Of a stretch of 44,496 bases of DNA, positions 6,092-36,802 are shown piece after piece. Within the stretch, counting starts at the first letter, position 1. Each line of letters opens with the position of its first letter. The notes under the pieces were generated by a model that made no database searches, had not been told where the DNA came from, and saw only the letters and a program-made list of their open reading frames with translations. A program made the translations under genes and the position numbers. The stretch lies in assembly GCA_002293275.1 (NCBI GenBank), contig DBCX01000037.1:5704-50199 (forward strand). Reading direction: 5' to 3'. Source of the stretch: Cyanobacteria bacterium UBA947. GTDB taxonomy: Bacteria > Cyanobacteriota > Vampirovibrionia > Gastranaerophilales > Gastranaerophilaceae.

Positions 6092-6225
6092 AGAATTATT
6101 GTACCACAAATATTAACGGCAGAACCTGCCTGCGGCGAATGTAACGATTTGTAACCAAACCGCCGGTTTTGTTAAAGTTCGGCAAAACCCATGCCGACAT
6201 GGCTTTCAGAAGGAAGAGGTGGTTT

Positions 6226-7767
6226 ATGGGCTTATCATCAACTCAGGCTCGTTTTTTGCAGTTAACGGGCAGAAAAAGTAATGTTGAATATCAAGGACAA
6301 CAGATTAACCAGTCGCGTGTTGCGCTGGGCAACCAATCGGCAAGCTACTATCAGCAGCTGTACAGTTCAACAGTACCAACCCCGCCATCGGTTGATGAGT
6401 ATACAAAAGTTGTTTACTCGTTCAATGACGGAAGGGTTGATAACGAGATTACGTTTATGCAGGCCAAGCAAAACGGCGAGTATATGGTCAGCTACAAAAC
6501 GTCCGCCAGAGATGATTTCGCTATCGTGAAGGATTCGTCAAACATTGCTACGCGTGTTATGGCGATGGATGAAAATAATGTAAGTTATTATGAAAAGGTT
6601 AACAAACAAAAGGATTACCAATATCTGGCAAACTCGGAGTATCATTCAACGGCATATATGACGCGGATGATGAACCACATTTTGCCGCCGGGTAACTACA
6701 CAACATCTGACGGTCAAAATCTTGTGATATACGCTGCGCTTGACCCGGCCGGCAGCGGAGATATTGATACTCAAGATTGGTCAAAGCATCAGGATTATAT
6801 CCCGCTGCGTGACGTTTATACCCAAATCGCGGCCGACCCGGATTCAACTATTATCCAGCAGCTTATAGATTTGCTCTATGACACGCGGCAGGCAAACCCC
6901 AACAACGTAGACAGAAAAAATACACCGGAAGACACCGAGCTTGTTGACAGGTTCCGCGATATTGTTGAAAACCAGATAGCGCAGTTTTTCACCGAACAGT
7001 TTATGATTGGCAGCAGGCAGCTGCGCACGATGGGCGAAATGCCCGAGGATGAGCTTAGAAACTCCGACCCGTATTTGCGCACCCTGTCAGACGACGAAAT
7101 CGTCGCTATGGTTGAGGAAGAACTTTTGTATCTGGAAAAACTTAACTCGGATGATTTAAAGAACAAATACAACGACGACCGCTACGCTGTGCCGATAGGC
7201 AACCCGGACTGGGACAAGCCGGGCGATGACGGCGGTGACTGGCTTATCCGTTATGTTCAAAACACAAGCACAGGCGCGTGGGAGCCGGAATTCTACAGAG
7301 AGGCCGAATTGCGCGGGATAAGAGATAATTACCGCACATTCTATGACGAAAACAACAACAGCGCCTCCGGGATCAATTTCTACAAAGTCTCCGGTGACAC
7401 AGAAGAAATCCAAGAGATAAAAGGCGTACCGGCACGGCTTGAACACGACGGCACCGGCAGGTACTCAAGCATTACGCTCAACCCCGGTACCGAGTTTGAG
7501 CAGTATTATTCACTCACGACCAACACGGTTAAAGATGAGCTGGCATACGAAAGCGCGATGAACCAGTACAACTTTGACAAGCACTGGTATGATGACATGA
7601 TATCAAGTGTGAACGCCAAGATTAAAAATATTCAGGCGCAGGACAGAAATTTAGAGATAAAACTAAAACAATGCGACACAGAACAACGTGCTATCCAAAC
7701 CGAAATGGAGGCAATAACCAAAATCGTTGAAAAGAACGTGGAATCAACGTTCAAAACATTCGGATAA
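6226..7767 (+). CDS. Hypothetical protein with helical N- and C-terminal segments and a D/N/Y-rich core
   Basis: The ATG at 6226 follows a GGAAGAGGTGG Shine-Dalgarno (the track start at 6169 is TTG). No signal peptide. N-terminus: LSSTQARFLQLTGRKSNVEYQGQQINQSRVAL. C-terminal heptad-like tail: NAKIKNIQAQDRNLEIKLKQCDTEQRAIQTEMEAITKIVEKNVE. Confidence 0.7.
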   Translation: MGLSSTQARFLQLTGRKSNVEYQGQQINQSRVALGNQSASYYQQLYSSTVPTPPSVDEYTKVVYSFNDGRVDNEITFMQAKQNGEYMVSYKTSARDDFAIVKDSSNIATRVMAMDENNVSYYEKVNKQKDYQYLANSEYHSTAYMTRMMNHILPPGNYTTSDGQNLVIYAALDPAGSGDIDTQDWSKHQDYIPLRDVYTQIAADPDSTIIQQLIDLLYDTRQANPNNVDRKNTPEDTELVDRFRDIVENQIAQFFTEQFMIGSRQLRTMGEMPEDELRNSDPYLRTLSDDEIVAMVEEELLYLEKLNSDDLKNKYNDDRYAVPIGNPDWDKPGDDGGDWLIRYVQNTSTGAWEPEFYREAELRGIRDNYRTFYDENNNSASGINFYKVSGDTEEIQEIKGVPARLEHDGTGRYSSITLNPGTEFEQYYSLTTNTVKDELAYESAMNQYNFDKHWYDDMISSVNAKIKNIQAQDRNLEIKLKQCDTEQRAIQTEMEAITKIVEKNVESTFKTFG

Positions 7768-7843: not shown

Positions 7844-10800
7844 CTAAACCTTCTCACCCAGTTTGTGGTAGAGAATCAGTGAGTGGTCAATCTCGATATT
7901 CCCGCCGTCTTGTCTGACGATTGTGTTGCCACGGGTTACGTACTTGACTTTGTGCTTCGGTTCTTGACCCGGCTTCAAGTCCATCAAATCGTTGGCATCG
8001 TAGAATACAAGTCCGTCTCTTACCCCGCCCGGCAGCCCGTTGCACATGTTGATACATCCAAGCGACTTATGACCTTGTTTTCTTATCATAGAAACAGTCA
8101 TCGCGCCGTCAGTGCTTTGACGCAGAACGCCTGCGTGGCCCTCTTTATCCCAATCTGCCCATTTTGTGCTGTCGTTTGGCGCAAGAGTAAATACTGCACC
8201 ATCGTTGAGCGGTCTGAGCTCAGGCCGCGAGCGCAGTGTCATTATTTTCTTCAACTCTTTGTCCAATTTCGTGATGAAATCTTTTTCATCCGCTCCGCCT
8301 TCTGTCCATTCTGTATGCAACCGGGCGCGGTTTTGAACAAAGATATTTTTTGAGTCTGCTTCAAAACCTGTTGCACCGTACTGGTCACCGTCAAACAATG
8401 TCGGGAAGCCCGGCAGCGCAACCAATACCTTCATCATTTGTTTCAATTTTTCTGTCGCAGGTTTCAGAACCGCTTCAAACACTGCGTCCGCGACTTTTTT
8501 GCGGTCGCCGGTCTCGAACTCGTAACCGTTGTGTTCCATCTGATCCAGCACCAAATCAATAGTTATATCGAAAGGTTTTACGCCAAATCCTGTCGCATCA
8601 AATTCGTCGCCTTTGTAAAATCCTTTTGCCAAATCCGCAACAGCTGCTCTTGCCGCAGATTTCAGGTACTCCGGCTGGCTGTTAAAGCCGTTGTTTATCG
8701 CTTCACCCACCGCGATTGCTTTGGTTGAATATTCGTTGAACGGATAGTCAGCAGGCGGCCAGTCCTTGCCTTCAAGAACTTTGTACGCGCGTTTACGCAT
8801 CTCTGTGTTGCCCCTGTCCATCAATTTTGCGAAGAACAAGTCCATATCAATTGCAAGGCAGTGCAAAGACCGCGCCTTGTCGTGGTTGCCGATAAATGTA
8901 TACGAGTTAACCAAACCATCGTACAGGTCAGCGTTTAACATCTCTGCTAACGACTTGAATATATTGTTGTCGTCTATTCCGCCTTTTTCAAAGTTGCTGC
9001 TGAAGATTTGTGATACTGCGTGGAATAAGAAATTGTAATTTGCCGTGGTTGTTACACCGGTTGATGCAAGGAATTCGTGTTCCAATATAGGCGATATTGC
9101 ATCGGGGTTTGTGACTTCGGCCGCGATATAGGCGTTAGGATTCTCGTTTTTAACACCATCGGCAAACTTTTTCCAGAAATCAATTACCTGATTTGCCATA
9201 TCGTCACCCTGATTGAAACCGTTGCGCATGCCTTCCACATCGGCGATATCTTTTGCCGCATCAAGCCGCCAGTCAAGCCCCGCACCTGCACGGTCAACCA
9301 TAACCTGCGCCAAATCAAAACTTTTCGTGTTTGTGTTCGCAAACATCGTTGTAATCGCATCGGCAATCGGTTTTTTGTGGTCATCTTTAATACTGTTTAT
9401 TCCGTTTTTGATTTTTTTAGCAAGTGCGACGGCCTCACTCTGCGGTGAAAATTCTTTGACCCCGATGTCGTACAGCGTGTGTTTTTTCAACTCTTTGTAA
9501 TTGTAGGATATTTCGCCTGTTTCTTTATCAATGTTTACGGCCGCATCTTTGTGAAGCCCTTTGATTAGAGCGAACCGTGCGACTTCCGCGCTGATTATCG
9601 GCAATACGTATTTGCCGTACTCGGTTACCTTTTCAATAGTTTTGCCGTCTGCAAGCTTTTCGGTGATTGTGATCGGCTCGTTGAACTCCGCTTTGTTCAA
9701 AATATCTTTTGTCAATTTGAGCATCGCATCGGTGTAGATTGCATCCGTTGCTTTGTAAGATTTTTTGTATTCTTGCGGCAGTCCGGGGTATTGTCTTGCT
9801 GCCGTAGGATCTGCGGGGTTGTCCGCAAGGTACATATCATAACGCGATTTGCCCAAATCACGTACGTGCTGCGCGCGTTTGCTCATCAAAGGTGATGACA
9901 GAACACCTGATATCTCGTCCCCAACCTCAACCGAGTCAAGCGGAACCTCCATAAGACCTTTCAGAATTTGCTGGTCAAAAGCCATGTCAGGCTGCTCTTT
10001 GAGCTTGTAGTTGCCTTTGAGAACATTGTCAATTACCTCAAGCCCCATGATATTACTTGGAAGATTAGGGCTGCCTTCAATCTCGTGCAGAATTTTATTG
10101 GCATCTTTGGCAGTGCCATCCTCGTTTTCAGGGATGCCGATTTGCTGCGCTGCGTGCAGGTTCAAAACCTGGTCGGCTTTTTTTGTCCAGTACCGGCCGG
10201 CTGTTATCGCAAGATCCTGCACCTCAAAGTTTGCTCTGGCAAGCTTTTGTTTGTCGGCCTCAACATTGTATGAATTAATCAGGTCAAGAGCATCGGTGTT
10301 TGACGTAGTGTAATTCAATTTGAGGATATCAGGGTTGGCCTCCCACGTTTCAAATCCGCCTTCAAACTTTTCTTCCGCTTCCCAGGTGGTTGATTTCAGA
10401 AGCGCACGGGTCTCCTCGTAGTTGTACGCATCTTTTTCTTTCAGACCGGCACGTTTCATGTTGGTTCTTAAAATATGGTCTTCAAGTTCAAGGGTATACA
10501 AAATAACCGTGTCGTGGTGCGATATGATATCGAGCGGATTGTCAGGGTCTTTGTTGTAAGCTTCAATCAACTCTTTCTTTTTCAAGTCTTTCACCAGCCT
10601 GTTGTCGTAAATCTGGATATAATTTTTGCCGTGCTCTTTGACAATACGCGAGTTAATATGTTCTTGGTTGTGCTTGCTGAAAATACCGAGTTTCACGGGG
10701 TTGTCCAAATCCATTCTGAACCAGCCCGGAATAGGCGTGCGGTTGCCCCATCTCAAATTGTATTTGAAGTGGATACCTTCAAGCCCTTCGTTTACAAACG

Positions 10801-11527
10801 CGCCGTCAGCCGCCCAGTTAATTCCTTTGGCAAACATTTTTTCCAACATTGTTGCAAACTGGTTGATGCTGCCCATTGACTGGGTCATTTGCATAATATT
10901 TCTGGTCCAATAACCGTGGTGGGTGACCGGATCATCACCAAAAACAGGCAGCCCGACCACGCGCGAATACCCGTTGAGCTTGCCGTCATCCAAATCTTTT
11001 ATAATCCCCGCAATGCTGCCGCCGGATTTCATGGCGTAGTTTTTGTCTTTCAAAATGTTTTCATTCGGGACAATTTCGCCTTCTGCATTAAATACATAGT
11101 CGTTGTTAAGATCCGGTGCGATGAGCTTTTGGGCGCCGGCCTTGCCGGTGTAACCGTCAGGTACATAGTTGAACAAGCCGTAATCTCCTTGAACGATTTT
11201 TCCGGCTTCTGTTATGGGCCCTATTACCTTGCCTTCGTGGTCATACACAGGGTTGCCGTTTTTGTAGGTTTGGAGGTATCTGTATGCAAACGGCCCTTTT
11301 ATGCTTCCGACATAATTATTTGTGGAGTTGTCCAGCGGTACGGTTTTAAGAAGCTCACGAACCTTATAGCCGTCCTTGGTCTTTTCGGCTTTGCAAATTT
11401 CGACCGCAAAGTTGTACTTTTCATCGTCAAACGGATGGTTAAAAGTATAGACCTTCTCGCCGGTCGACGTTTTAACCTGCTTATATCCGCTAAAAGCAAC
11501 ATTGCTATTTATAGAACCGATTTTCAC
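7844..11527 (-). CDS. Giant GH13 (alpha-amylase superfamily)-like enzyme with a large internal insertion and an N-terminal tag
   Basis: GH13 conserved regions are present. Pre-region: GGSIAGIIKDLDDG...HHGYW. Region I: AADGAFVNE (aa ~241). Region II: GLDWRLDAAKD (aa ~751). Region III: YIAAEVT (aa ~800). Region IV: FIGNHDKAR (aa ~878). Later motif: LPGFPTLFDGDQYG. GTG start preceded by AGGGG. No signal peptide. Confidence 0.8.
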   Translation of the reverse strand: MKIGSINSNVAFSGYKQVKTSTGEKVYTFNHPFDDEKYNFAVEICKAEKTKDGYKVRELLKTVPLDNSTNNYVGSIKGPFAYRYLQTYKNGNPVYDHEGKVIGPITEAGKIVQGDYGLFNYVPDGYTGKAGAQKLIAPDLNNDYVFNAEGEIVPNENILKDKNYAMKSGGSIAGIIKDLDDGKLNGYSRVVGLPVFGDDPVTHHGYWTRNIMQMTQSMGSINQFATMLEKMFAKGINWAADGAFVNEGLEGIHFKYNLRWGNRTPIPGWFRMDLDNPVKLGIFSKHNQEHINSRIVKEHGKNYIQIYDNRLVKDLKKKELIEAYNKDPDNPLDIISHHDTVILYTLELEDHILRTNMKRAGLKEKDAYNYEETRALLKSTTWEAEEKFEGGFETWEANPDILKLNYTTSNTDALDLINSYNVEADKQKLARANFEVQDLAITAGRYWTKKADQVLNLHAAQQIGIPENEDGTAKDANKILHEIEGSPNLPSNIMGLEVIDNVLKGNYKLKEQPDMAFDQQILKGLMEVPLDSVEVGDEISGVLSSPLMSKRAQHVRDLGKSRYDMYLADNPADPTAARQYPGLPQEYKKSYKATDAIYTDAMLKLTKDILNKAEFNEPITITEKLADGKTIEKVTEYGKYVLPIISAEVARFALIKGLHKDAAVNIDKETGEISYNYKELKKHTLYDIGVKEFSPQSEAVALAKKIKNGINSIKDDHKKPIADAITTMFANTNTKSFDLAQVMVDRAGAGLDWRLDAAKDIADVEGMRNGFNQGDDMANQVIDFWKKFADGVKNENPNAYIAAEVTNPDAISPILEHEFLASTGVTTTANYNFLFHAVSQIFSSNFEKGGIDDNNIFKSLAEMLNADLYDGLVNSYTFIGNHDKARSLHCLAIDMDLFFAKLMDRGNTEMRKRAYKVLEGKDWPPADYPFNEYSTKAIAVGEAINNGFNSQPEYLKSAARAAVADLAKGFYKGDEFDATGFGVKPFDITIDLVLDQMEHNGYEFETGDRKKVADAVFEAVLKPATEKLKQMMKVLVALPGFPTLFDGDQYGATGFEADSKNIFVQNRARLHTEWTEGGADEKDFITKLDKELKKIMTLRSRPELRPLNDGAVFTLAPNDSTKWADWDKEGHAGVLRQSTDGAMTVSMIRKQGHKSLGCINMCNGLPGGVRDGLVFYDANDLMDLKPGQEPKHKVKYVTRGNTIVRQDGGNIEIDHSLILYHKLGEKV

Positions 11528-11613: not shown

Positions 11614-12399
11614 TCAATTACGAATCCAGATTGTAAACACGACATTATCTTGTTCGGGCAGGATTTCAATCTCTTTCCCTCGCAAAATAACACCTGCGCC
11701 GTTGAAAAATTGAGCTTTCCTGTGGGATTTTTGTTTCAATATGTCAAACCCGTTGATGCTAAGAGGATTATTGATTGTTTTGCCGTCAATCTTAAATGTT
11801 TTGAAATCAATCTGTGCGCTGTCAAACCACCAGCCGTTTGGCGCCACGTAATCAACAATCCCGATAACAGGTCTGCCGTCGGTGGTCTTGAACCTAATCG
11901 TATCACCGATTTGGATTTGGTTGTGCGTGGTAGAAATCTTTTGAGCGGGCGAAATTCGCAGCGGCAGTTTGTCCGGTCTGCCGCCGTATTGGGCGAAAAA
12001 TTGCAGCTCTTGCCCGGGCTCAATATTAATCTCGCCGCCGCGGATTAGCGACCAGTTCAGCTGGGCGTTTTCGGCAAACTCACCGACCTGTGCGTGCGAG
12101 TTACCGTTAAGATGCAGGCTGCCTTTGATATTGCGCGTGCCGTCCGTAAAGTTCCCGACAATAACGCGCGCCTCCTGCACGGAAAAATCGTTTGGCTCGT
12201 ACTCCATGACAGTACCGGTAATAATAGTGCCTTTTTTGAACTCGCCGGTATCGCCTGTTACCTTGAAATCAACATTATCGCCTTCTGACAATGGTTTTGA
12301 GGTGGAAAACTCTGCCACCGGCGTGATTTTAAGCAGAACCTCCTGCGCGCATGCCGGCATGCACAATAACATCAGTACTAAAAGAATTAACCGTCTCAT
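11614..12399 (-). CDS. Secreted hypothetical protein
   Basis: Signal peptide MRRLILLVLMLLCMPACAQE. Beta-rich sequence with internally similar halves. Its ATG overlaps the upstream M48 gene stop (ATGA). Confidence 0.7.
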   Translation of the reverse strand: MRRLILLVLMLLCMPACAQEVLLKITPVAEFSTSKPLSEGDNVDFKVTGDTGEFKKGTIITGTVMEYEPNDFSVQEARVIVGNFTDGTRNIKGSLHLNGNSHAQVGEFAENAQLNWSLIRGGEINIEPGQELQFFAQYGGRPDKLPLRISPAQKISTTHNQIQIGDTIRFKTTDGRPVIGIVDYVAPNGWWFDSAQIDFKTFKIDGKTINNPLSINGFDILKQKSHRKAQFFNGAGVILRGKEIEILPEQDNVVFTIWIRN

Positions 12400-13061
12400 A
12401 TCGCCTCGTGTCTGCGTTGCTTTTGCTGCTGCTTGAATTTTTGGATTTCTTTGCTTTGCGAGCTCAAAAAGTTTTGATAAATAATATTGTTTGTCATAGA
12501 CGAACTCAGGTATTGCGGGTATTTGACGTAGATATATTTATACATTTCAAGCATTCTTTTTGAGCCTTGCGGGTGGGTGCTGAGCCAGTCCATGCGCGGC
12601 TCGCCGTTAACCTTGTCCGCAGCGATTATTGCTGCAATCGGGTTGTAGCCCGCTTTTACCATATAATCTATTCCGTTAAGGTCGGCCTTGTATTCGTATT
12701 TTTTGCTGTTAAAGTTCATCGCCCAAACCTTCAAAGCTCCGCCGTAGGCCTCCATTGCGTGGGAAAGCTCGTGCGAAAGGACATAGGCATACTCGTCATC
12801 GTTATCAAGATAGGGCAAAATCCCCGTGTAAATGGTTACTTCTTTGCTGATAAACTGCGCGCTGGCGTTGACAACTTTGTTATTCGGGACAACAAAAATC
12901 GGTGCGCGTTTCAGGTTATTGGCCCGAATTATTTTGTAGCCGATTTCGTGCGCCTCTTTTACCTGTTTTGAAAGCTGGGTTGAGCTGACAAGCTCAATGT
13001 TGACCGCGAACGCGTCTGTCCCTGCAAACATCAAACATAATAATAAAACAATCTTTTTCAT
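12396..13061 (-). CDS. M48-family zinc metallopeptidase (secreted/periplasmic)
   Basis: Signal peptide MKKIVLLLCLMFAGTDAFA, HExxH motif (SHELSHAME), and a strong GGAGGAG Shine-Dalgarno. Confidence 0.8.
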   Translation of the reverse strand: MKKIVLLLCLMFAGTDAFAVNIELVSSTQLSKQVKEAHEIGYKIIRANNLKRAPIFVVPNNKVVNASAQFISKEVTIYTGILPYLDNDDEYAYVLSHELSHAMEAYGGALKVWAMNFNSKKYEYKADLNGIDYMVKAGYNPIAAIIAADKVNGEPRMDWLSTHPQGSKRMLEMYKYIYVKYPQYLSSSMTNNIIYQNFLSSQSKEIQKFKQQQKQRRHEAI

Positions 13062-14464: not shown

Positions 14465-14470
14465 ACTTTT

Positions 14471-14543
14471 GCGTCCTTAGTTCAGTTGGTAGAACGGTGG
14501 TCTCCAAAGCCGCATGTCGGAGGTTCGAGTCCTTCAGGGCGCG
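14471..14543 (+). tRNA. trnW: tRNA-Trp (anticodon CCA)
   Basis: Hand-folded cloverleaf. Acceptor stem GCGTCCT/AGGGCGC, D arm GTTC..GAAC, anticodon loop CTCCAAA, T arm GGAGG-TTCGAGT-CCTTC. No encoded CCA. Confidence 0.9.
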
Positions 14544-14609
14544 ATTTAGAAAAGGGGCCCGGGTTGGGTAAAAGTCAAGACCCGCCGGCATTCCCCCCGA
14601 AAGGAAAAA

Positions 14610-26842: not shown

Positions 26843-27205
26843 CTATTTAACCAGTCCCTCGGTCTCGTTGAACATAACCATATAAAAATCCGGATGCGTC
26901 ATATTCGGGTTGCGTTTCATAAACTTTTGCAAATCAAAATTCGCCAGATATTTGTCCAGCTTTTGCACAACCTTTTCGCGCTCGGCGTGCTCAACTTTTA
27001 GCTTTTCAATATAATTGTTCACAAGATACCAGACATCATCATCGGTCAAAATCGGCTGGCCGCCTAACCGCACCTCATCTTGCTCCTCCTCATCAATCAG
27101 CCGGCGCTTTTCCTCCTTTTTCTCCTCTTTTTTCTGCTGTTTGTTTTTATCCGAGGATGTTGACGAGGAAACTTTTTGGAACGGATTGTTTATATTATTA
27201 AACAT
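26843..27205 (-). CDS. Hypothetical protein with a K/E-rich N-terminal region
   Basis: 120-aa ORF with no recognised domain. Confidence 0.55.
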   Translation of the reverse strand: MFNNINNPFQKVSSSTSSDKNKQQKKEEKKEEKRRLIDEEEQDEVRLGGQPILTDDDVWYLVNNYIEKLKVEHAEREKVVQKLDKYLANFDLQKFMKRNPNMTHPDFYMVMFNETEGLVK

Positions 27206-27382: not shown

Positions 27383-29218
27383 TTGGAAAAACAAAAAACG
27401 TTAACTCGTGCGACAAGCACTATATCAGGCAAACTGGCGTCCAACCCGATTTTGCGGGAGGCGGCAGAGGTCATCACGTGCATAAACGAACTGAACACCC
27501 ACAAGACCTCAAACAAGCTTTATGCCGGATACTTGGGCCAAGCGCTCAAGACAAAAAAAGAGATTAACTACCCGGACTTGATTAAGAAGATGAACGATGC
27601 GTTCCAAAATTGTTCCAATGTCCAAAAATTAACCGCTTCCATCCACAAAGTTCTCTCGGAAAATGTTACAGCGAGTTTCAGCGCAACAGGACTCTACCAC
27701 GAAAGCTCAAGATGCCTGAACCTGACGCTGCACAGCACATCCGGCAGCACGTATACGTCAAAAATTTTCACCTCCGACGAGGAAAACCCTATCGTGCAGT
27801 GCTTCACCACCGGCGAGCCTGTATTCAAAACGGACAACAGGTTTTTGAACATCCCGTACCTTCAAACATCACCGGCGCTTTTGCTGCCGCTGCGCACGTT
27901 TGGCAAGGTTATTGGTGTTGCAATACTTGATGCCGCAGAAACTGATTTGGACCTGTTTTCGTTCATCGCGAACCACTTTGCTATGTTCATCGCAAATATT
28001 GAGCTTACCGAGAAGGCCGCTCAATACGAAAACACCGATATTTTGACCGGATTGTTGAACCACCGCGGGTTCCAGGAGGTTTTGAGCCGAGAAATTTTCA
28101 CCGCGCAGGAAAATAAGACCAACCTGTCCGTTGTCATGTTTGATATTAACAACATTTCCAAAATCAACCGGGAGCTCTCGCACGCGAAAGGTGACGAGGT
28201 TATCAAACTTGTTGCGCAAAAGATTAAACAAAACATCCGCAGCGGTGATTCTGCCGGGCGTTACGGCGGTGACGAGATTGCCGTGATTTTGCCCGATACA
28301 AGCACTGCCGATGCAAAATATCTTGCTGAAACCATCAACTACACGTTATCTTGCTGTTTTGTGGATGATGTGGGGCCCGTGAAGATGTCTGTGGGGATTG
28401 CGACATATCCTGAGTGCACAAGCGATCAGGAAAAGCTGCTTATCCTTGCGGAACAAGCGACACACATCTCGCAGGCAAAGGGTTACCAAAACGGGATGTC
28501 AGCGATTGTAAGCTCATCTGATTTTAATTTCTGGGATAACGATGCTTTGAAATCATTCGCGCAGGTGCTGTCAAAACGGCACTCGCAGCTTGGTGTTAAC
28601 TACGAAACCGAGCTTTTGAACCAGTTTGCGACCGAGCAGGGGCCGGTGAACATTCTTGATATGGCAACATCGCTTGCGGGTGCGATTGACGCAAAAGATC
28701 CGTATACCAAAGACCACTCCACGGCGGTTTCGCGCTACTCAGAGGCGCTTGCGCACGCGGTTAATCTGCCGGAGATTGAGGTTCAACGTATAAAACTTGG
28801 TGCGCTGCTGCACGATGTCGGCAAAATCGGCGTTCCTGAGTCGGTGTTAAACAAAACCGACAAGTTGACCGACGAAGAATTTGAAATTATCAAGCGTCAC
28901 CCGGAAATCGGTGCTATGAAGGTGCTTGAACCGAACGAGTCGCTGCGTGATTTGATTCCTATTGTAAAATATCACCACGAACGTGTTGACGGCAAGGGTT
29001 ATCCAGAGCAGCTGACAGGGGAGCACATCCCGCTGGGTGCACGTATTGTGGCGGTTGCGGACTCGTTCCACGCGCTAATCAGCGACCGGCCGTACCGTAA
29101 GGGTATGCCCGTTGAAAAAGCCTGCGAAATCCTGCGCATGGGCGCAGGCACGCAATGGGACAGCGATTTGGTCCGTCATTTTATCAGCATCGCATCGTCT
29201 TTGGCTACAACGGTATGA
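27383..29218 (+). CDS. GAF-like sensor / GGDEF diguanylate cyclase / HD-GYP phosphodiesterase composite protein
   Basis: RSGD-SAGRY-GGDEI provides an I-site RxxD plus the A-site. The HD-GYP module has HDVGKIGVP and HHERVDGKGYP. TTG start. Confidence 0.85.
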   Translation: MEKQKTLTRATSTISGKLASNPILREAAEVITCINELNTHKTSNKLYAGYLGQALKTKKEINYPDLIKKMNDAFQNCSNVQKLTASIHKVLSENVTASFSATGLYHESSRCLNLTLHSTSGSTYTSKIFTSDEENPIVQCFTTGEPVFKTDNRFLNIPYLQTSPALLLPLRTFGKVIGVAILDAAETDLDLFSFIANHFAMFIANIELTEKAAQYENTDILTGLLNHRGFQEVLSREIFTAQENKTNLSVVMFDINNISKINRELSHAKGDEVIKLVAQKIKQNIRSGDSAGRYGGDEIAVILPDTSTADAKYLAETINYTLSCCFVDDVGPVKMSVGIATYPECTSDQEKLLILAEQATHISQAKGYQNGMSAIVSSSDFNFWDNDALKSFAQVLSKRHSQLGVNYETELLNQFATEQGPVNILDMATSLAGAIDAKDPYTKDHSTAVSRYSEALAHAVNLPEIEVQRIKLGALLHDVGKIGVPESVLNKTDKLTDEEFEIIKRHPEIGAMKVLEPNESLRDLIPIVKYHHERVDGKGYPEQLTGEHIPLGARIVAVADSFHALISDRPYRKGMPVEKACEILRMGAGTQWDSDLVRHFISIASSLATTV

Positions 29219-32825: not shown

Positions 32826-32984
32826 AGCTATTTTCCTTTCGCTAAGATTATGATATTTCAAAAATAAAAAATTAGCAATAGGGATTTTTTTGTAAAGATT
32901 TGTAAATTGACTGGCAAAATAGTTTATTTAGATGATTTAAAGCATGGTAACACGAGCTACAATGAATCACGAGAGGTTAGTATC

Positions 32985-33428
32985 ATGGTAGATAACAGGT
33001 CAGCCGGATTTTTCGGAGTAGGCGGCGCTTTTAATTTCAAAAGCGGCAACATATCCGGTACTGCGGCTAATCTGAGTGATGACAAAATGGGTCAAGGCGG
33101 TGAGTATGCCAACCTTCGCGGCGAGCAAGAGGAAGAAAAAACCCACAGCTATCCGTATATGGACAGGAGCGCGGTTTTGCGCGCGACGCTAAACTCGCTT
33201 GCGATGATGAATGTAGCCGATGTTATAAACAACAAGCGCCCCGGCGTTGACGCAAGCCGGCCGGCCGAGGAAACACAGCGCGTTGAGGCGATTAGGGAAG
33301 AATTACAGCGCCGGCACAAGCAGGACGAGCAAGACGGGCAGACCGAACACAACGAATACACCGAAACCCACGACACCGAAGACACCGCAGACGATGAAGA
33401 TTTTGATTTTGCAGGGGAGTTAGATTAG
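32985..33428 (+). CDS. Hypothetical protein with a highly acidic C-terminal tail
   Basis: The ATG at 32985 follows a GAGAGG Shine-Dalgarno. Gly-rich N-terminus and a D/E/T/H-rich C-terminus (TETHDTEDTADDEDFDFAGELD). Confidence 0.55.
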   Translation: MVDNRSAGFFGVGGAFNFKSGNISGTAANLSDDKMGQGGEYANLRGEQEEEKTHSYPYMDRSAVLRATLNSLAMMNVADVINNKRPGVDASRPAEETQRVEAIREELQRRHKQDEQDGQTEHNEYTETHDTEDTADDEDFDFAGELD

Positions 33429-33793
33429 TAGTACAAAGCGCTCATGTAGGTCATGCCGGAATTTGTGGCGACTCTGTGTTCTATGTCTTCAATTTCTTCT
33501 GCCATCCCGTAAAACGTCCGGCCTACACTGTCGGCGCTTTCAACAGCGTCTACAAAGTTAAGATACTTAACCTCATTGCCTTCTTTATCTGCGAGTACCA
33601 GCCTTTGGCCGTGATATCCGGGCAGCACCTCTGTTTTGTCCACAAGGTCTAAAAACGTGCAATTTTTTACTGTCTCAAAAGAATTCTTTGACACTTTTGA
33701 CATGTCGTAAACCCCGGCGTCAAGTTTTGCCTGCGCTTTTTCCGAAATCCCGCGAAAACTTGTGTTGTACGCACCTATACTTGCTATTTTCAT
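33425..33793 (-). CDS. Hypothetical 122-aa protein carrying the N-terminal MKI..I...SFRG tag
   Basis: AAGGAAAAA Shine-Dalgarno. N-terminus MKIASIGAYNTSFRGISEKA. No recognised domain. Confidence 0.6.
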   Translation of the reverse strand: MKIASIGAYNTSFRGISEKAQAKLDAGVYDMSKVSKNSFETVKNCTFLDLVDKTEVLPGYHGQRLVLADKEGNEVKYLNFVDAVESADSVGRTFYGMAEEIEDIEHRVATNSGMTYMSALYY

Positions 33794-33883
33794 ACATTTT
33801 TCCTTTTTCTTAAAACCTAAAATTTTGCTGTATTCAATATAATGTTCGTAAAAATAAAATTTGCTAGCCGGACAAAATTATTG

Positions 33884-34054
33884 TTAAACTTCGTGAGATT
33901 TGTTTTCCGCCGGTTCTGCGGTTACAACCCAGTCAAGTTTTTCCAGCAGGACGGTCAGGTGCTTTGTCTGTTTTTTGGTTTGTTTTATCAGGTTTCTAAC
34001 CATCTCGCGGGCGTTACTCAGGTCTTTATTCAGCGCATCTGTCAAGTCGTACAT
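33884..34054 (-). CDS. Small hypothetical protein (56 aa, absent from the ORF track)
   Basis: MYDLTDALNKDLSNAREMVRNLIKQTKKQTKHLTVLLEKLDWVVTAEPAENKSHEV, preceded by a strong AAGGAGA Shine-Dalgarno. Divergent from the Xre gene at 34122. Confidence 0.4.
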   Translation of the reverse strand: MYDLTDALNKDLSNAREMVRNLIKQTKKQTKHLTVLLEKLDWVVTAEPAENKSHEV

Positions 34055-34121
34055 TTTTTAATCTCCTTACCATCCCGGTTTGGGAGTACTCCTAATCCGG
34101 CATACCATGTAAAATTAAACT

Positions 34122-34343
34122 ATGTCAAGCGCAGAAGAACAAATATACAAATTAATAGGCCAAAATATTCGCAAATACCGGATGGCAAAAGGGATTACAC
34201 AGGAAAAGTTGAGTGAAGTGATTGAGGTGAGCGATAAATTAATCGGACATATTGAGCGTTTTGAAAAGAATGTCAGCCTGAGAAAATTGATTAAAATTTC
34301 CCGTGCGCTTGACATTCAGTTAAAAGATTTGTTTGACTTTTAA
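34122..34343 (+). CDS. Xre-family HTH transcriptional regulator (73 aa)
   Basis: HTH_3 sequence: IGQNIRKYRMAKGITQEKLSEVIEVSDKLIGHIERFEKNVSLRKLIKISRALDIQLKDLF. Confidence 0.8.
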   Translation: MSSAEEQIYKLIGQNIRKYRMAKGITQEKLSEVIEVSDKLIGHIERFEKNVSLRKLIKISRALDIQLKDLFDF

Positions 34344-35191
34344 ACTTCGCGCGTCTTTTGCCAGACTATCGGCATGTCTTGCCCTTCTTTTAGCACAGGA
34401 CTAAAACCGTTGTCCTCCAACGCTTGGCTGATGAACAGTCCGGGACCCACATACTTGTCTGTATCTAAACGTCCGAGAACAAACAATCCGCCGGGTTTCA
34501 GCGCATAGTTAATGTTTTTACAAATATTGTCAAAAACCGCCATGGTCTTTTCTTTCTGCGGCATTGACAAATTAATCAACCCCGGAAGCAGATGATACAG
34601 GGCGTTTCTAAATGTCAACACGTCATAAGCGCCTTTTTCCACAGCCGGTTTTAGGTTAGTAATGTCCGCCTGAAAAAATTTAATCAAATCCTTTTTTTCC
34701 TCTTTAACCTTAAAAGTTTTGAAAAGTGTATTTACGCCGGTTTGTTTAAAATATTCTTTAAACATTTTCTTTTGAGTTTTTTGGTCCGGACTGTTCATCA
34801 GTCCGAATCCCAAATGCTTGTCGGCTTCTACCAGCGCGTGCGGATACGCACGATAAATCTCATACCTGCCGTAGTTTGCTTTCGCAACGGCTGCCCTTCC
34901 GATATCAAAGCCTTCAATCTGCGCCTTGTCACCGAGCATCATTTGCAGCGTCCACGCCTCCTCACCGGTTGAGCAGGCGCCAACCAGAATTTTGATTTTA
35001 TCTTTGTCTGCAAAATGTTTCCCGATAAACTGCAAACCCTCAACATCTCTGAAAAAATACGTTATTTGGGTAAGTTCTTTATTTTGTGTCGGCGCAAAAT
35101 TGCCGCTTTTGAGCTTTTCCTCGCTCCAATTCCCGCGAAAGGCGGGCTGTTTAGGGATAAATGCGGTTTGGCCGATTGCTGAAATTCTCAT
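34340..35191 (-). CDS. CheR-type SAM-dependent methyltransferase with N-terminal tag (paralog 1)
   Basis: CheR signatures TYFFRDVEGLQF, ILVGACSTGEEAWTL and YDVLTFRNALYHL. N-terminus MRISAIGQTAFIPKQPAFRGN. Confidence 0.8.
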   Translation of the reverse strand: MRISAIGQTAFIPKQPAFRGNWSEEKLKSGNFAPTQNKELTQITYFFRDVEGLQFIGKHFADKDKIKILVGACSTGEEAWTLQMMLGDKAQIEGFDIGRAAVAKANYGRYEIYRAYPHALVEADKHLGFGLMNSPDQKTQKKMFKEYFKQTGVNTLFKTFKVKEEKKDLIKFFQADITNLKPAVEKGAYDVLTFRNALYHLLPGLINLSMPQKEKTMAVFDNICKNINYALKPGGLFVLGRLDTDKYVGPGLFISQALEDNGFSPVLKEGQDMPIVWQKTREV

Positions 35192-35243
35192 AACTTTATA
35201 AACCGCGTAAAAAAATAATTTGTCATGTCATTGCGCACAGGGT

Positions 35244-36113
35244 TTAAATATTCATATCCCACTTCTTTTTCCAGACGGTCACTTTGTCATAATCTTGTGT
35301 GAACGCCAGCGCAAAACCGTTGCGTTTCAAAGCTCTGTAAACCATTTGACCGGATTCATTATCGTGGTCATGGCTTAATTCGCCGAGCACAAACAACCCG
35401 CCGGGTTTGAGCGCATAGTTGATGTTTTTACAAGCGTTATCCAAAACCAAAGCGACCTGCGGCGGCCGTGACACCCTCCCGCCAATAGGATGCCCCGAGA
35501 CCAAAAGATACAACGCGTTTCTGAACGTCAGCGCGTCATAAGCACCTTTTTCAACACACGGTTTCAAGTTAGTAATATCTGCCCGAAAAAACTTAATCAA
35601 ATCCTTTTTGTCCTCTTTCACCTTAAAAGTTGCGACCTCCGGCTTTGTGCGTACTTTTTCAAAATATTCGTTAAACATCGCTCTTTGCGGAGCTTTGTGC
35701 TGGTAAAAAAGTCCCTCATATCCCAGATAAGCGTCTGCATAACCCAAATTGAAATCATGACTTTTTTCCGGGTCTCTGATGTAAATTATCCCGGAATTTG
35801 CCTGATTAACAGCGCTTTTACCAAGATCAAATCCTTCAATCTTGGCCTTGCGGCCGAGCAGCATTTGCAGCGTCCATGCCTCCTCACCTGACGAGCATGC
35901 GCCGACCAAAACCTTTATTTTGTCTTTGTTTGCGAAATGTTTTCCGATAAACTCAAGACTCTCAACATCCCTGAAAAAATGCGTTGTTTGGGTAAGTTTG
36001 CTATTTTGCGTCTTTGCAAGATTATCTTCCGGAATGATTTCATACCCGCAGTTCCCGCGGAAGGCAGGCTGCCTCGGGATAAATGCTGTTTGACAAATTC
36101 CGGCAATTCTCAT
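35244..36113 (-). CDS. CheR-type SAM-dependent methyltransferase with N-terminal tag (paralog 2)
   Basis: THFFRDVESLEF, VLVGACSSGEEAWTL and YDALTFRNALYLL. N-terminus MRIAGICQTAFIPRQPAFRGN. Highly similar to paralog 1. Confidence 0.8.
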   Translation of the reverse strand: MRIAGICQTAFIPRQPAFRGNCGYEIIPEDNLAKTQNSKLTQTTHFFRDVESLEFIGKHFANKDKIKVLVGACSSGEEAWTLQMLLGRKAKIEGFDLGKSAVNQANSGIIYIRDPEKSHDFNLGYADAYLGYEGLFYQHKAPQRAMFNEYFEKVRTKPEVATFKVKEDKKDLIKFFRADITNLKPCVEKGAYDALTFRNALYLLVSGHPIGGRVSRPPQVALVLDNACKNINYALKPGGLFVLGELSHDHDNESGQMVYRALKRNGFALAFTQDYDKVTVWKKKWDMNI

Positions 36114-36211
36114 AATTTTTTATAAAACCCGTAAAAAAAATAATTTGCTCCCAAATTGTTTTTTTGTGCTAAAATATTTTTATAACATATTAGTTGGGAT
36201 TAGGTTATTTT

Positions 36212-36802
36212 ATGTCAGCAAAACAAAAGGTGAATTTAAGGGAGTATAAAGACTTGATTGAAACGATTGCCAAGGTTGAGTTTCAAAAGTTCTCAACCTC
36301 GCACCTGATTGATTTGCCGGAGATGATTAACATCGGCAACCACACGCTGTATGTGCTTTTCAGCAAACGACCGCCGTCAGAGTTTAATATAACCTATCTT
36401 TCAACCGCGATAAAATGGGCGATACGTAACGAGGTTCGCCGCCGCTACAAATGGTACTCGCTTAAAAACAAGTCCGAGGACGACGATGTCCGCACGGAGG
36501 TCTACAAAACAATCCTGTCAATTGACGAGATGCAAGATGCTGAAAATCCTACCCAAATCAAGGACGAGGAGCGGACACCCGATGAGCGCGCGGAAATCGG
36601 CGAGCTTAAAGTTGAAATCGTTAATGCCATGAAAAAGCTCTCCCCGCGTGAAAAAGAGATTATTGAGTGCAAATTTTTTCAGGACAAAAAACTAAAAGAT
36701 ATATCAGAAGAGTTCGGCATCTCGCAATCGCGCATCTCGCGCATAATCCAGTCCGGGCTGGACAAAATTAAAAAAGATTTGAAAAAACAGGGGATAATGT
36801 GA
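36212..36802 (+). CDS. Sigma-70 family alternative sigma factor (group 3/sigma-28-like size)
   Basis: Region 2-like (YLSTAIKWAIRNEVRRRYK) and region 4 HTH (LSPREKEIIECKFFQDKKLKDISEEFGISQSRISRIIQSGLDKIKK). The ATG at 36212 is preferred. A TGcTAAAAT extended -10 lies upstream. Confidence 0.8.
   Translation: MSAKQKVNLREYKDLIETIAKVEFQKFSTSHLIDLPEMINIGNHTLYVLFSKRPPSEFNITYLSTAIKWAIRNEVRRRYKWYSLKNKSEDDDVRTEVYKTILSIDEMQDAENPTQIKDEERTPDERAEIGELKVEIVNAMKKLSPREKEIIECKFFQDKKLKDISEEFGISQSRISRIIQSGLDKIKKDLKKQGIM

Follow-up and report, generated by a model that had tools for sequence, protein, structure and literature searches.

Four predicted proteins encoded in a stretch of DNA from Cyanobacteria bacterium UBA947 (Gastranaerophilaceae; contig DBCX01000037.1) begin with a similar short peptide, referred to here as the tag. 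The whole stretch that was analysed, 44,496 nucleotides in length, is called the window. The tag is a conserved, flexible and strictly N-terminal peptide found on unrelated, cytoplasmic-looking proteins (S-adenosylmethionine (SAM)-dependent, HD-domain and GH13 proteins), and as an N-terminal extension it is genuine and confined to Candidatus Gastranaerophilales (Melainabacteria), uncultured gut bacteria that are non-photosynthetic kin of cyanobacteria. The genome to which the window belongs is from termite gut. The tag probably marks its carriers for a common processing or sorting factor. An original prediction, made from the letters of the window, had pointed out the four proteins and suggested that they share a recognition peptide, an interpretation that is plausible and that our analysis partly supports. 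The tagged genes of the window and their tags are as follows; the ranks are those given to start candidates by the scoring matrices described further below.

33425-33793, minus strand: 122-aa protein of unknown function, from the list of open reading frames (ORFs), N-terminus MKIASIGAYNTSFRG
33749..33793, minus strand: tag of the 122-aa protein, MKIASIGAYNTSFRG, codons 1-15, by translation; matrix ranks #2 and #3 of 1163 starts
34340-35191, minus strand: CheR-like SAM-dependent methyltransferase 1, 283 aa, N-terminus MRISAIGQTAFIPKQPAFRG; Pfam PF01739, E = 6.5e-11
35132..35191, minus strand: tag of CheR-like protein 1, MRISAIGQTAFIPKQPAFRG, codons 1-20, by translation; AlphaFold predicted local distance difference test (pLDDT) score ~32
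35244-36113, minus strand: CheR-like SAM-dependent methyltransferase 2, 289 aa, N-terminus MRIAGICQTAFIPRQPAFRG; Pfam PF01739, E = 1.2e-9
36054..36113, minus strand: tag of CheR-like protein 2, MRIAGICQTAFIPRQPAFRG, codons 1-20, by translation; identical to the tag of paralog 1 at 16/20 residues
7844-11527, minus strand: 1227-aa GH13-like protein, GTG start, N-terminus VKIGSINSNVAFSG; Pfam alpha-amylase PF00128, E = 6.9e-13
11486..11527, minus strand: tag of the GH13-like protein, (V->fM)KIGSINSNVAFSG, codons 1-14, GTG start, by translation; rank #1 of 1163 (CheR-trained matrix)

Translation confirmed the four ORFs and their N-termini as first described, and no alternative downstream start exists from which translation could bypass the tag. 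The four proteins had been called unrelated. This holds across families, where no other similarity could be detected, but not for the two CheR-like genes, which are tandem paralogs (55% identity beyond the tag and 16/20 residues within it), and the tag is therefore carried by three unrelated families rather than four. When the tags were stripped from the sequences, the CheR-like pair alone remained alike, and every other pair gave E > 0.01.

The CheR-like carriers have the SAM-binding domain of CheR but not CheR_N: no Pfam match to the CheR_N helical domain was seen in either protein, and 43-44 residues, tag included, lie ahead of the Pfam match to the SAM-binding domain. A carrier scored 21.8 bits against the NCBIfam CheR equivalog model, whose cutoff is 435, and the top structural matches of the predicted model were the CheR structures 1bc5 and 1af7 (template modelling score 0.55-0.58). 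The putative product of 7844-11527 carries the alpha-amylase catalytic domain that marks the GH13 family, with the PF00128 match limited to residues 738-895, and weak sequence matches in the PDB to neopullulanase and cyclomaltodextrinase cover residues 168-278. Searches of Pfam, NCBIfam and PADLOC with the 122-aa protein gave zero matches; an identical protein is carried by two termite-gut metagenome contigs.

Comparison of the tags of the window with those of their relatives showed a bipartite peptide. In its general form, an N-terminal block, M-[KR]-[IV]-x-x-[IVL], is followed by a polar spacer and a C-terminal block, hydrophobic-x-F-x-G, after which comes Y, F or H. The spacer is rich in Asn, Lys, Gln, Ser and Thr, and its variable length places the Phe anywhere between residues 9 and 39; longer spacers often hold a middle motif resembling I-Y-N-F. 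The version found in the window, M[KR]I-x2-I...[AS]F[RS]G, is real in all four proteins as originally proposed, but its [AS]F[RS]G ending is this genome's own form of the more general hydrophobic-x-F-x-G. The two CheR-like tags (35132-35191 and 36054-36113) also hold an internal repeat, TAFIPK / PAFRG, which resembles a duplicated C-terminal block. Two weaker look-alikes named in the original prediction do not fit the motif and failed to score in any of the tests: that at 26843-27205 reads PFQK and has no Gly, and that at 32985-33428 (also given as 32907-33428) contains FNFKSG at an internal position.

As had been noticed at the outset, the codons used for the conserved residues differ synonymously. 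Ile is encoded by ata, att or atc and Phe by ttt or ttc in different tags of the window, and several of the differences between the tags of CheR-like proteins 1 and 2 are synonymous. In addition, the tag is conserved over highly diverged orthologs and is better conserved between the paralogs than the rest of the protein, which supports the view that the constraint acts on the peptide and not on the DNA.

We then turned to structure prediction for two of the carriers. In the AlphaFold model of a CheR-like protein (mean pLDDT 80.8), residues 1-20 had a pLDDT of ~32 and showed no secondary structure, and the fold began at residue 22. In the model of the N-terminal region of the GH13-like protein (mean pLDDT 59.7), residues 1-16 likewise had a pLDDT of ~32, while a beta-sandwich was formed by residues 25-96. 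The tag is thus predicted to lie outside both folds, and the folded domain starts directly after the C-terminal block.

The Gastranaerophilales sequences covered were the window and 11 loci, twelve distinct sequences in all. Every Gastranaerophilales locus was retrieved with a tagged bait, and only the neighbouring genes form an unbiased sample. In a genomic scan, the CheR-like genes had their nearest relatives in Candidatus Gastranaerophilales metagenome-assembled genomes, and the remaining matches of the scan were ordinary CheR proteins from other phyla. Among the CheR-like homologs, the N-terminal extension was present in 15/15, in each case with M-x-I-[SN], a variable spacer and a C-terminal block. 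The block takes the form x-F-[KSR]-G-[HY] in the majority of homologs, whereas P0005 reads F-V-G-H. Both Phe and Gly were kept in all but P0009, which lacks the Phe; in P0008, the residue between Phe and Gly is missing. Alignment of the homologs shows an invariant G20, with I3 and F18 nearly so.

The GH13-like protein provided a larger family, with at least 267 homologs, mostly of 1350-1400 aa and mostly from gut metagenomes; one cluster is named Candidatus Scatousia. The tag was seen in 108 of the 109 unique N-termini, in the form MK[VI]x[LF][ND][L]N followed by a polar stretch and [VI]-x-F-[EKQG]-G-[YF]. Phe and Gly were both present in all of the tabulated GH13 tags (103/103), with the Phe at residues 9-39. 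Over the first 170 residues of the family, 11 columns are invariant, and M1, the tag Phe and the tag Gly make up 3 of these. Seven database entries (P0003, P0004, P0039, P0042, P0044, P0049 and P0136) are extended spuriously upstream, and the MK[IV] of the tag is their likely true start.

Further tagged proteins occur in relatives, and the original prediction thereby withstands one of the refutations that had been named for it. Two of them adjoin the CheR-like gene of locus L003:

Locus L003: 1305-aa HD-domain protein, tagged, N-terminus MITPVDINKIYTKTEYTPAFRG
L003 11022-11306: 94-aa protein, tagged, N-terminus MNVQKISMNNYNTPAFKG

L089 and L092 each hold a possible degenerate tag, on proteins of 148 aa and 340 aa, respectively. 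Once their tags were removed, the carriers showed no mutual similarity except between CheR-like paralogs, and the small proteins were also unlike one another. Tagged genes tend to cluster near CheR-like genes. Tandem pairs of tagged CheR-like genes recur (window 34340-36113, L090 889-2925 and L091 4748-6614), and small tagged ORFs are often found beside CheR-like genes, as with the 122-aa protein of the window, L003 11022-11306 and possibly L089 6685-7131.

Profile hidden Markov models (HMMs) are poorly suited to so short a motif with so variable a spacer, and we therefore relied on anchored regular expressions and on scoring matrices of two blocks to determine if the likeness exceeds what chance would produce. 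The short string [AST]F[RSK]G occurs 10 times across the six frames of the window, and 4 of these 10 occurrences are at the starts of the tagged long ORFs. A strict pattern was defined as [KRNQIDL][IV]..[IVY], 3-35 residues, and then [ASTHN]F[KRS]G. Applied without anchoring to 59,321 six-frame ORF positions from five Gastranaerophilales sequences, it gave 6 distinct matches, all of them gene N-termini and none internal, and the strict pattern is therefore found at gene starts only. Anchored at candidate start codons, as the original prediction had proposed, the strict pattern matched 5/1856 Gastranaerophilales starts compared to 1/29,487 in a control set of 1.18 Mb of loci from other phyla (Fisher p = 4e-6, and 8e-4 without the CheR-like baits). 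A relaxed pattern matched 10 genes in 4256 Gastranaerophilales starts and 5 in 39,073 control starts, and all 5 control matches were at internal TTG codons.

The ranking by two-block matrices is the most independent of these tests. Matrices were trained solely on other genomes and used to rank 1163 start candidates of the window. The matrix trained on GH13 tags placed the 122-aa protein at #2 and one CheR-like gene at #3, and the matrix trained on CheR tags placed the GH13-like gene at #1 and the 122-aa protein at #3. The similarity of the two members that are not CheR-like is therefore significant by a cross-family test.

Low-complexity, A+T-rich N-termini could in principle share MKI and F-x-G by accident, and certain observations lean that way. 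The motif is short, and a combined scoring matrix gave control matches that scored near the 122-aa and 94-aa proteins. Profile HMM searches were also without significant matches: a profile search of large protein databases with 17 tags returned 7 candidates, none with E <= 10; a search of protein representatives with the tag found just one training sequence and one repeat protein; a local hmmsearch with tag HMMs gave near-zero scores throughout, true tags included; and a profile search of the PDB gave chance matches only, to the antibody heavy-chain segment 'YSPSFKGHVT'. Against an accidental origin, the strict pattern was never internal in the same genomes, the relaxed pattern was absent from all 7476 starts of the related phage-like contigs (483 kb), Phe and Gly were kept in every one of the 103 diverged GH13 tags, and the cross-family rankings put unrelated tagged genes in the top three. 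Taken together, these results largely exclude chance, which we regard as a highly improbable explanation.

No model covering the tag was found in Pfam, NCBIfam or PADLOC, and in the literature on N-terminal motifs, secretion or Prp in Melainabacteria and Gastranaerophilales we found no description of it. Short N-terminal tags common to unrelated proteins are known; the motif and its lineage are new, as its partner would be, and the tag belongs to none of the known signal families with which it was compared.

By analogy with the protease Prp, we tentatively favour a reading in which the tag is a flexible recognition peptide or pro-peptide for one shared partner and is processed at the F-x-G junction. 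The two short hydrophobic segments of the tag would dock onto one common cellular partner, most likely a dedicated factor that cuts off the extension at the F-x-G junction, and the tag would then act as a pro-peptide or assembly tag, with recognition taking place ahead of protein maturation. We infer a shared partner because the tag sits on folds that have nothing in common, because conservation is restricted to two short hydrophobic blocks and the spacer varies freely, and because the tags of the window agree with one another: 4/4 match M[KR]I[AGS][SAG]I, compared to 0/103 of the GH13 orthologs from other genomes. Co-variation of tags within a genome, which would be expected if they track one partner, is therefore possible. 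Cleavage after F-[RS]-G, as originally suggested, we infer solely from the point at which conservation ends and the predicted fold starts. With still more reserve, we envisage a hitherto unrecognised sorting or maturation system of Gastranaerophilales in which a dedicated protease, chaperone or transporter recognises the tag, and tag and receptor co-evolve between genomes. The carriers would make up a small regulon with no other kinship: the CheR-like methyltransferases, the giant proteins of the GH13-like and HD-domain types, and a number of small proteins.

Prp (PF04327) is a cysteine protease that removes an M-L-x-x-[DN]-L-Q-[FL]-F'A extension from ribosomal protein L27, from the capsid and scaffold proteins of phage 80alpha and probably from FlhB, and a species-specific match of Prp to the L27 motif has been documented (PMC9405229). 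Like the tag, the sequence that it removes is short (9-15 residues or longer) and extends the N-terminus of unrelated proteins, with an alternating hydrophobic and Asn-type leader and a near-invariant Phe just ahead of the mature protein. The B. subtilis FlhB sequence MKLRVDLQFF'A can be placed in register with the MKV[SA]LDLN of GH13 tags. The Prp motif co-varies with its protease between species, and a comparable co-variation within the genome is possible for the tag. Unlike Prp substrates, however, the tag has two blocks split by a variable polar spacer, and Melainabacteria lie outside the phyla reported to have Prp or a long L27.

Several observations weigh against a shared, Prp-like partner. 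The cleavage motif of Prp, [DN]-[LI]-Q-[FL]-F'A-[SH]-K-K, is unlike the tag's [VI]-[SNA]-F-[EKQ]-G-[YFH]. Although the N-terminal site and the invariant Phe are present, the tag has [NK]-[VI]-[SNA] at P4-P2 and [EKQ]-G-[YFH] at P1'-P3', and since the residues flanking the Phe differ, it is not a canonical Prp substrate. Neither Prp-like nor L27 genes were found in the window or the fetched loci, and the same sequences yielded no partner, protease or transporter for the tag. Most neighbouring genes are untagged, with 0 tags in ~35 genes around the GH13-like genes of L085 and L087, so that tagged genes are a small minority. The likeness of the N-terminal blocks within the window could partly reflect the higher G+C content of this genome, with Ala, Gly and Ser replacing Asn and Lys. 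Finally, tag profile HMMs remained below significance in every database, and the family-wide claim therefore rests on the purpose-built pattern tests.

Among the alternatives to a recognition peptide of this kind, the one that survives best, unlikely as we consider it, is that the tag is a non-Sec export signal, with the flagellar type III apparatus as the first candidate, which would send the enzymes outside or into another cell. The tag is N-terminal, disordered and rich in Ser, Thr, Asn and Ile, with few acidic residues, and a glycoside hydrolase could plausibly act extracellularly. YopE starts with MKISSF..., and N-terminal blocks such as MKISAINN... and MKIASIG... resemble it. Tagged CheR-like genes lie 3-4 kb from flhA in L089 and L091, and a FliA/WhiG-like sigma factor, below the family cutoff, adjoins the CheR-like pair of the window. 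The tag is also bipartite, like early flagellar substrates, which have small hydrophobic residues at positions 3-7 and a downstream gate recognition motif that contains Phe (PMC8983047). Type III signals resemble it in being N-terminal, unstructured and uncleaved by Sec, with two spaced elements of which the second has a Phe, and in nearly all tags position 3 is occupied by I/V and positions 5-7 hold I/L/V.

The second element fits less well. GH13 tags carry K at position +4 from the Phe, a position that varies among CheR tags, and F-x-G-[YH] agrees inconsistently with F-x-x-x-hydrophobic. Flagellar substrates need ~19-24 residues between the two elements, as determined for Salmonella FlgD (PMC8983047), compared to only 5-8 in many tags, including those of the 122-aa and GH13-like proteins of the window. 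Type III signals are rarely conserved as an explicit motif, unlike the tag with its invariant Phe and Gly, and type III substrates are axial or effector proteins, unlike the cofactor-dependent enzymes that carry the tag; SAM-dependent methyltransferases and HD-domain enzymes need cytoplasmic cofactors. Ordinary Sec signals are used in the same genomes, and a flagellar linkage was seen in only 2/12 distinct Gastranaerophilales sequences.

The flhA genes themselves are at L089 1-1992 and L091 2-937; the L089 frame is broken by a stop (1-177 / 235-1992), which could make it a pseudogene or point to an assembly error. The sigma factor of the window (36194-36802, plus strand) is a 202-aa member of the sigma-70 family, divergent from the CheR-like pair, and its score against the nearest subfamily, FliA/WhiG, is far below the cutoff.

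The tag could instead act within or between its carriers, with no dedicated partner. It might be an autoinhibitory or stabilising strand or hairpin, a zipper for oligomerisation or co-assembly, an N-terminal degradation signal, or an effect of the translation-initiation region; taken together, we believe in these slightly less than in export. The hydrophobic segments are strand-prone, and in the GH13 model residues 9-12 and 16-19 form short strands. The spacers resemble zipper-forming segments in their abundance of Asn, Gln and Tyr, and MK-hydrophobic starts are common in A+T-rich genomes. On the other hand, both AlphaFold models give the tag low confidence and no reproducible packing. The same motif is present on a Rossmann methyltransferase, on a beta-sandwich/TIM-barrel enzyme and on proteins ranging from 94 to 1305 aa, and with folds and sizes as different as these, packing specific to one fold is hard to argue. 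Conservation at the amino-acid level with synonymous variation also speaks against this reading, and an effect of the initiation region is disfavoured because the start codon is 9-39 residues away from the invariant Phe and Gly. We consider a self-contained role in structure or oligomerisation less likely than recognition by a partner.

Known types of signal were compared with the tag one by one. Leaders of the Sec, twin-arginine translocation (Tat), lipoprotein, prepilin and double-glycine types resemble the tag in their N-terminal position and in having a basic residue after Met. The original prediction had ruled out Sec, Tat and lipoprotein signals, and this was upheld. The maximum mean Kyte-Doolittle hydropathy over 9 residues was 0.7-1.5 in the four tags, with none of the ~10-15-residue hydrophobic core that follows the basic n-region in Sec signals, whereas genuine signal peptides in the window (11614-12399 and 12396-13061) reached 3.5-3.7. 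Read directly, the tags contain no RR pair, as the Tat motif S/T-R-R-x-F-L-K would require, and no L-x-x-C lipobox; the sole Cys in the tags of the window, at position 7 of CheR-like protein 2, is outside a lipobox context. A class III leader of type IV prepilins was rejected, as the tags have x-F-x-G followed by polar residues and not F-T-L-x-E with a hydrophobic helix of ~20 residues; genuine pilin-like genes of the same lineage read KKAFTLAEVLIVLGVIG. In the pilin-like proteins of Gastranaerophilales (KKAFTLAEVLI), Ala precedes the Phe at the prepilin cleavage site, where Gly is usual, and the genes with this Ala are:

L003 18387-19001: pilin-like gene with Ala
L083 9506-10426 and 2923-3993: pilin-like genes with Ala
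L085 4916-5662 and 14245-15048: pilin-like genes with Ala

A double-glycine leader for a C39 peptidase (PCAT) was likewise set aside. The consensus L-S-x-x-E-L-x-x-I-x-G-G, which is cleaved after GG, is absent and there is no E-L element, and the residue before the invariant Gly of the tag is E, K, Q, G, R or S, being Gly in 10/103 GH13 tags.

The capsid targeting sequence of phage T4, the encapsulation peptides of microcompartments and encapsulin targeting peptides are like the tag in being short terminal peptides on unrelated proteins; they direct their cargo to one structure, and some are later removed. Microcompartment encapsulation peptides are amphipathic helices of ~18 residues with a flexible linker, unlike the tag, which is rich in Gly, Asn, Ser, Thr and Pro and for which neither model predicts a helix in residues 1-20. 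This identity was rejected. In addition, an enzyme of 1200-1400 aa would be an unlikely cargo, and no shell, capsid or encapsulin genes were seen adjoining the tagged genes.

Other identities were also tried and rejected. An RNA element under the DNA of the tag found no counterpart in Rfam, which gave tRNA-Trp alone in the window, and PADLOC had no matches for the tagged proteins as parts of a defence system. A phage origin was dismissed with 55 IMG/VR contigs (483 kb; L096-L150) that share the prophage-like capsid of L087 at 57-91% identity and had 0 tags at 7476 starts. The prophage-like block that holds this capsid (an amidase and a Phage_capsid_4 capsid) lies ~6 kb downstream of the GH13-like gene, at L087 20067-24179 and L088 14443-18555. 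An apparent tag, LFKGNY, on a 1790-aa autotransporter-like ORF in L004 was discarded, as the ORF is open upstream and the motif lies within a Pmp-like repeat.

The neighbourhood of the tagged genes contained further features. A small helix-turn-helix gene, resembling either a restriction-modification control protein or Cro, is divergent from an ORF of 56-71 aa, and the pair is found between or near tagged genes:

Window 33884-34054 (minus strand) and 34122-34343 (plus strand): helix-turn-helix gene and small ORF pair
L089 2122-2337 and 2393-2608: the same pair

A protein of ~530 aa with the conserved N-terminus MGL[SA][SA]xQAR[FL]L.[IL]TGR[KQ]S and no Pfam or NCBIfam match is encoded at 6169-7767 (plus strand) of the window and at L083 4128-5750. 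In L083, this family sits among pilin-like genes, and it may belong to envelope or pilus biology. The GAF-GGDEF-HD-GYP signalling protein at 27383-29218 (plus strand) of the window is ordinary, as is the tRNA-Trp at 14470-14544 (plus strand), just upstream of the nusG-L11-L1 cluster.

Short terminal tags on unrelated proteins have been a repeated route to new cellular machinery, as with LPXTG and sortase, PEP-CTERM and exosortase, the Prp motif, and the C-terminal domain of the type IX secretion system. The guts of humans, animals and insects commonly harbour Gastranaerophilales, and we found no report of a cultured isolate in the literature. The tag fixes the true start codons of its carrier genes, several of which have been extended spuriously upstream in database entries. 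It also offers a handle on its partner, as a peptide for pull-down, as a regular expression for genome mining, and through the invariant Phe and Gly as residues to mutate. A lineage-wide tag on a core glycoside hydrolase of 1200-1460 aa and on CheR-like methyltransferases points to undescribed cell biology in Gastranaerophilales.

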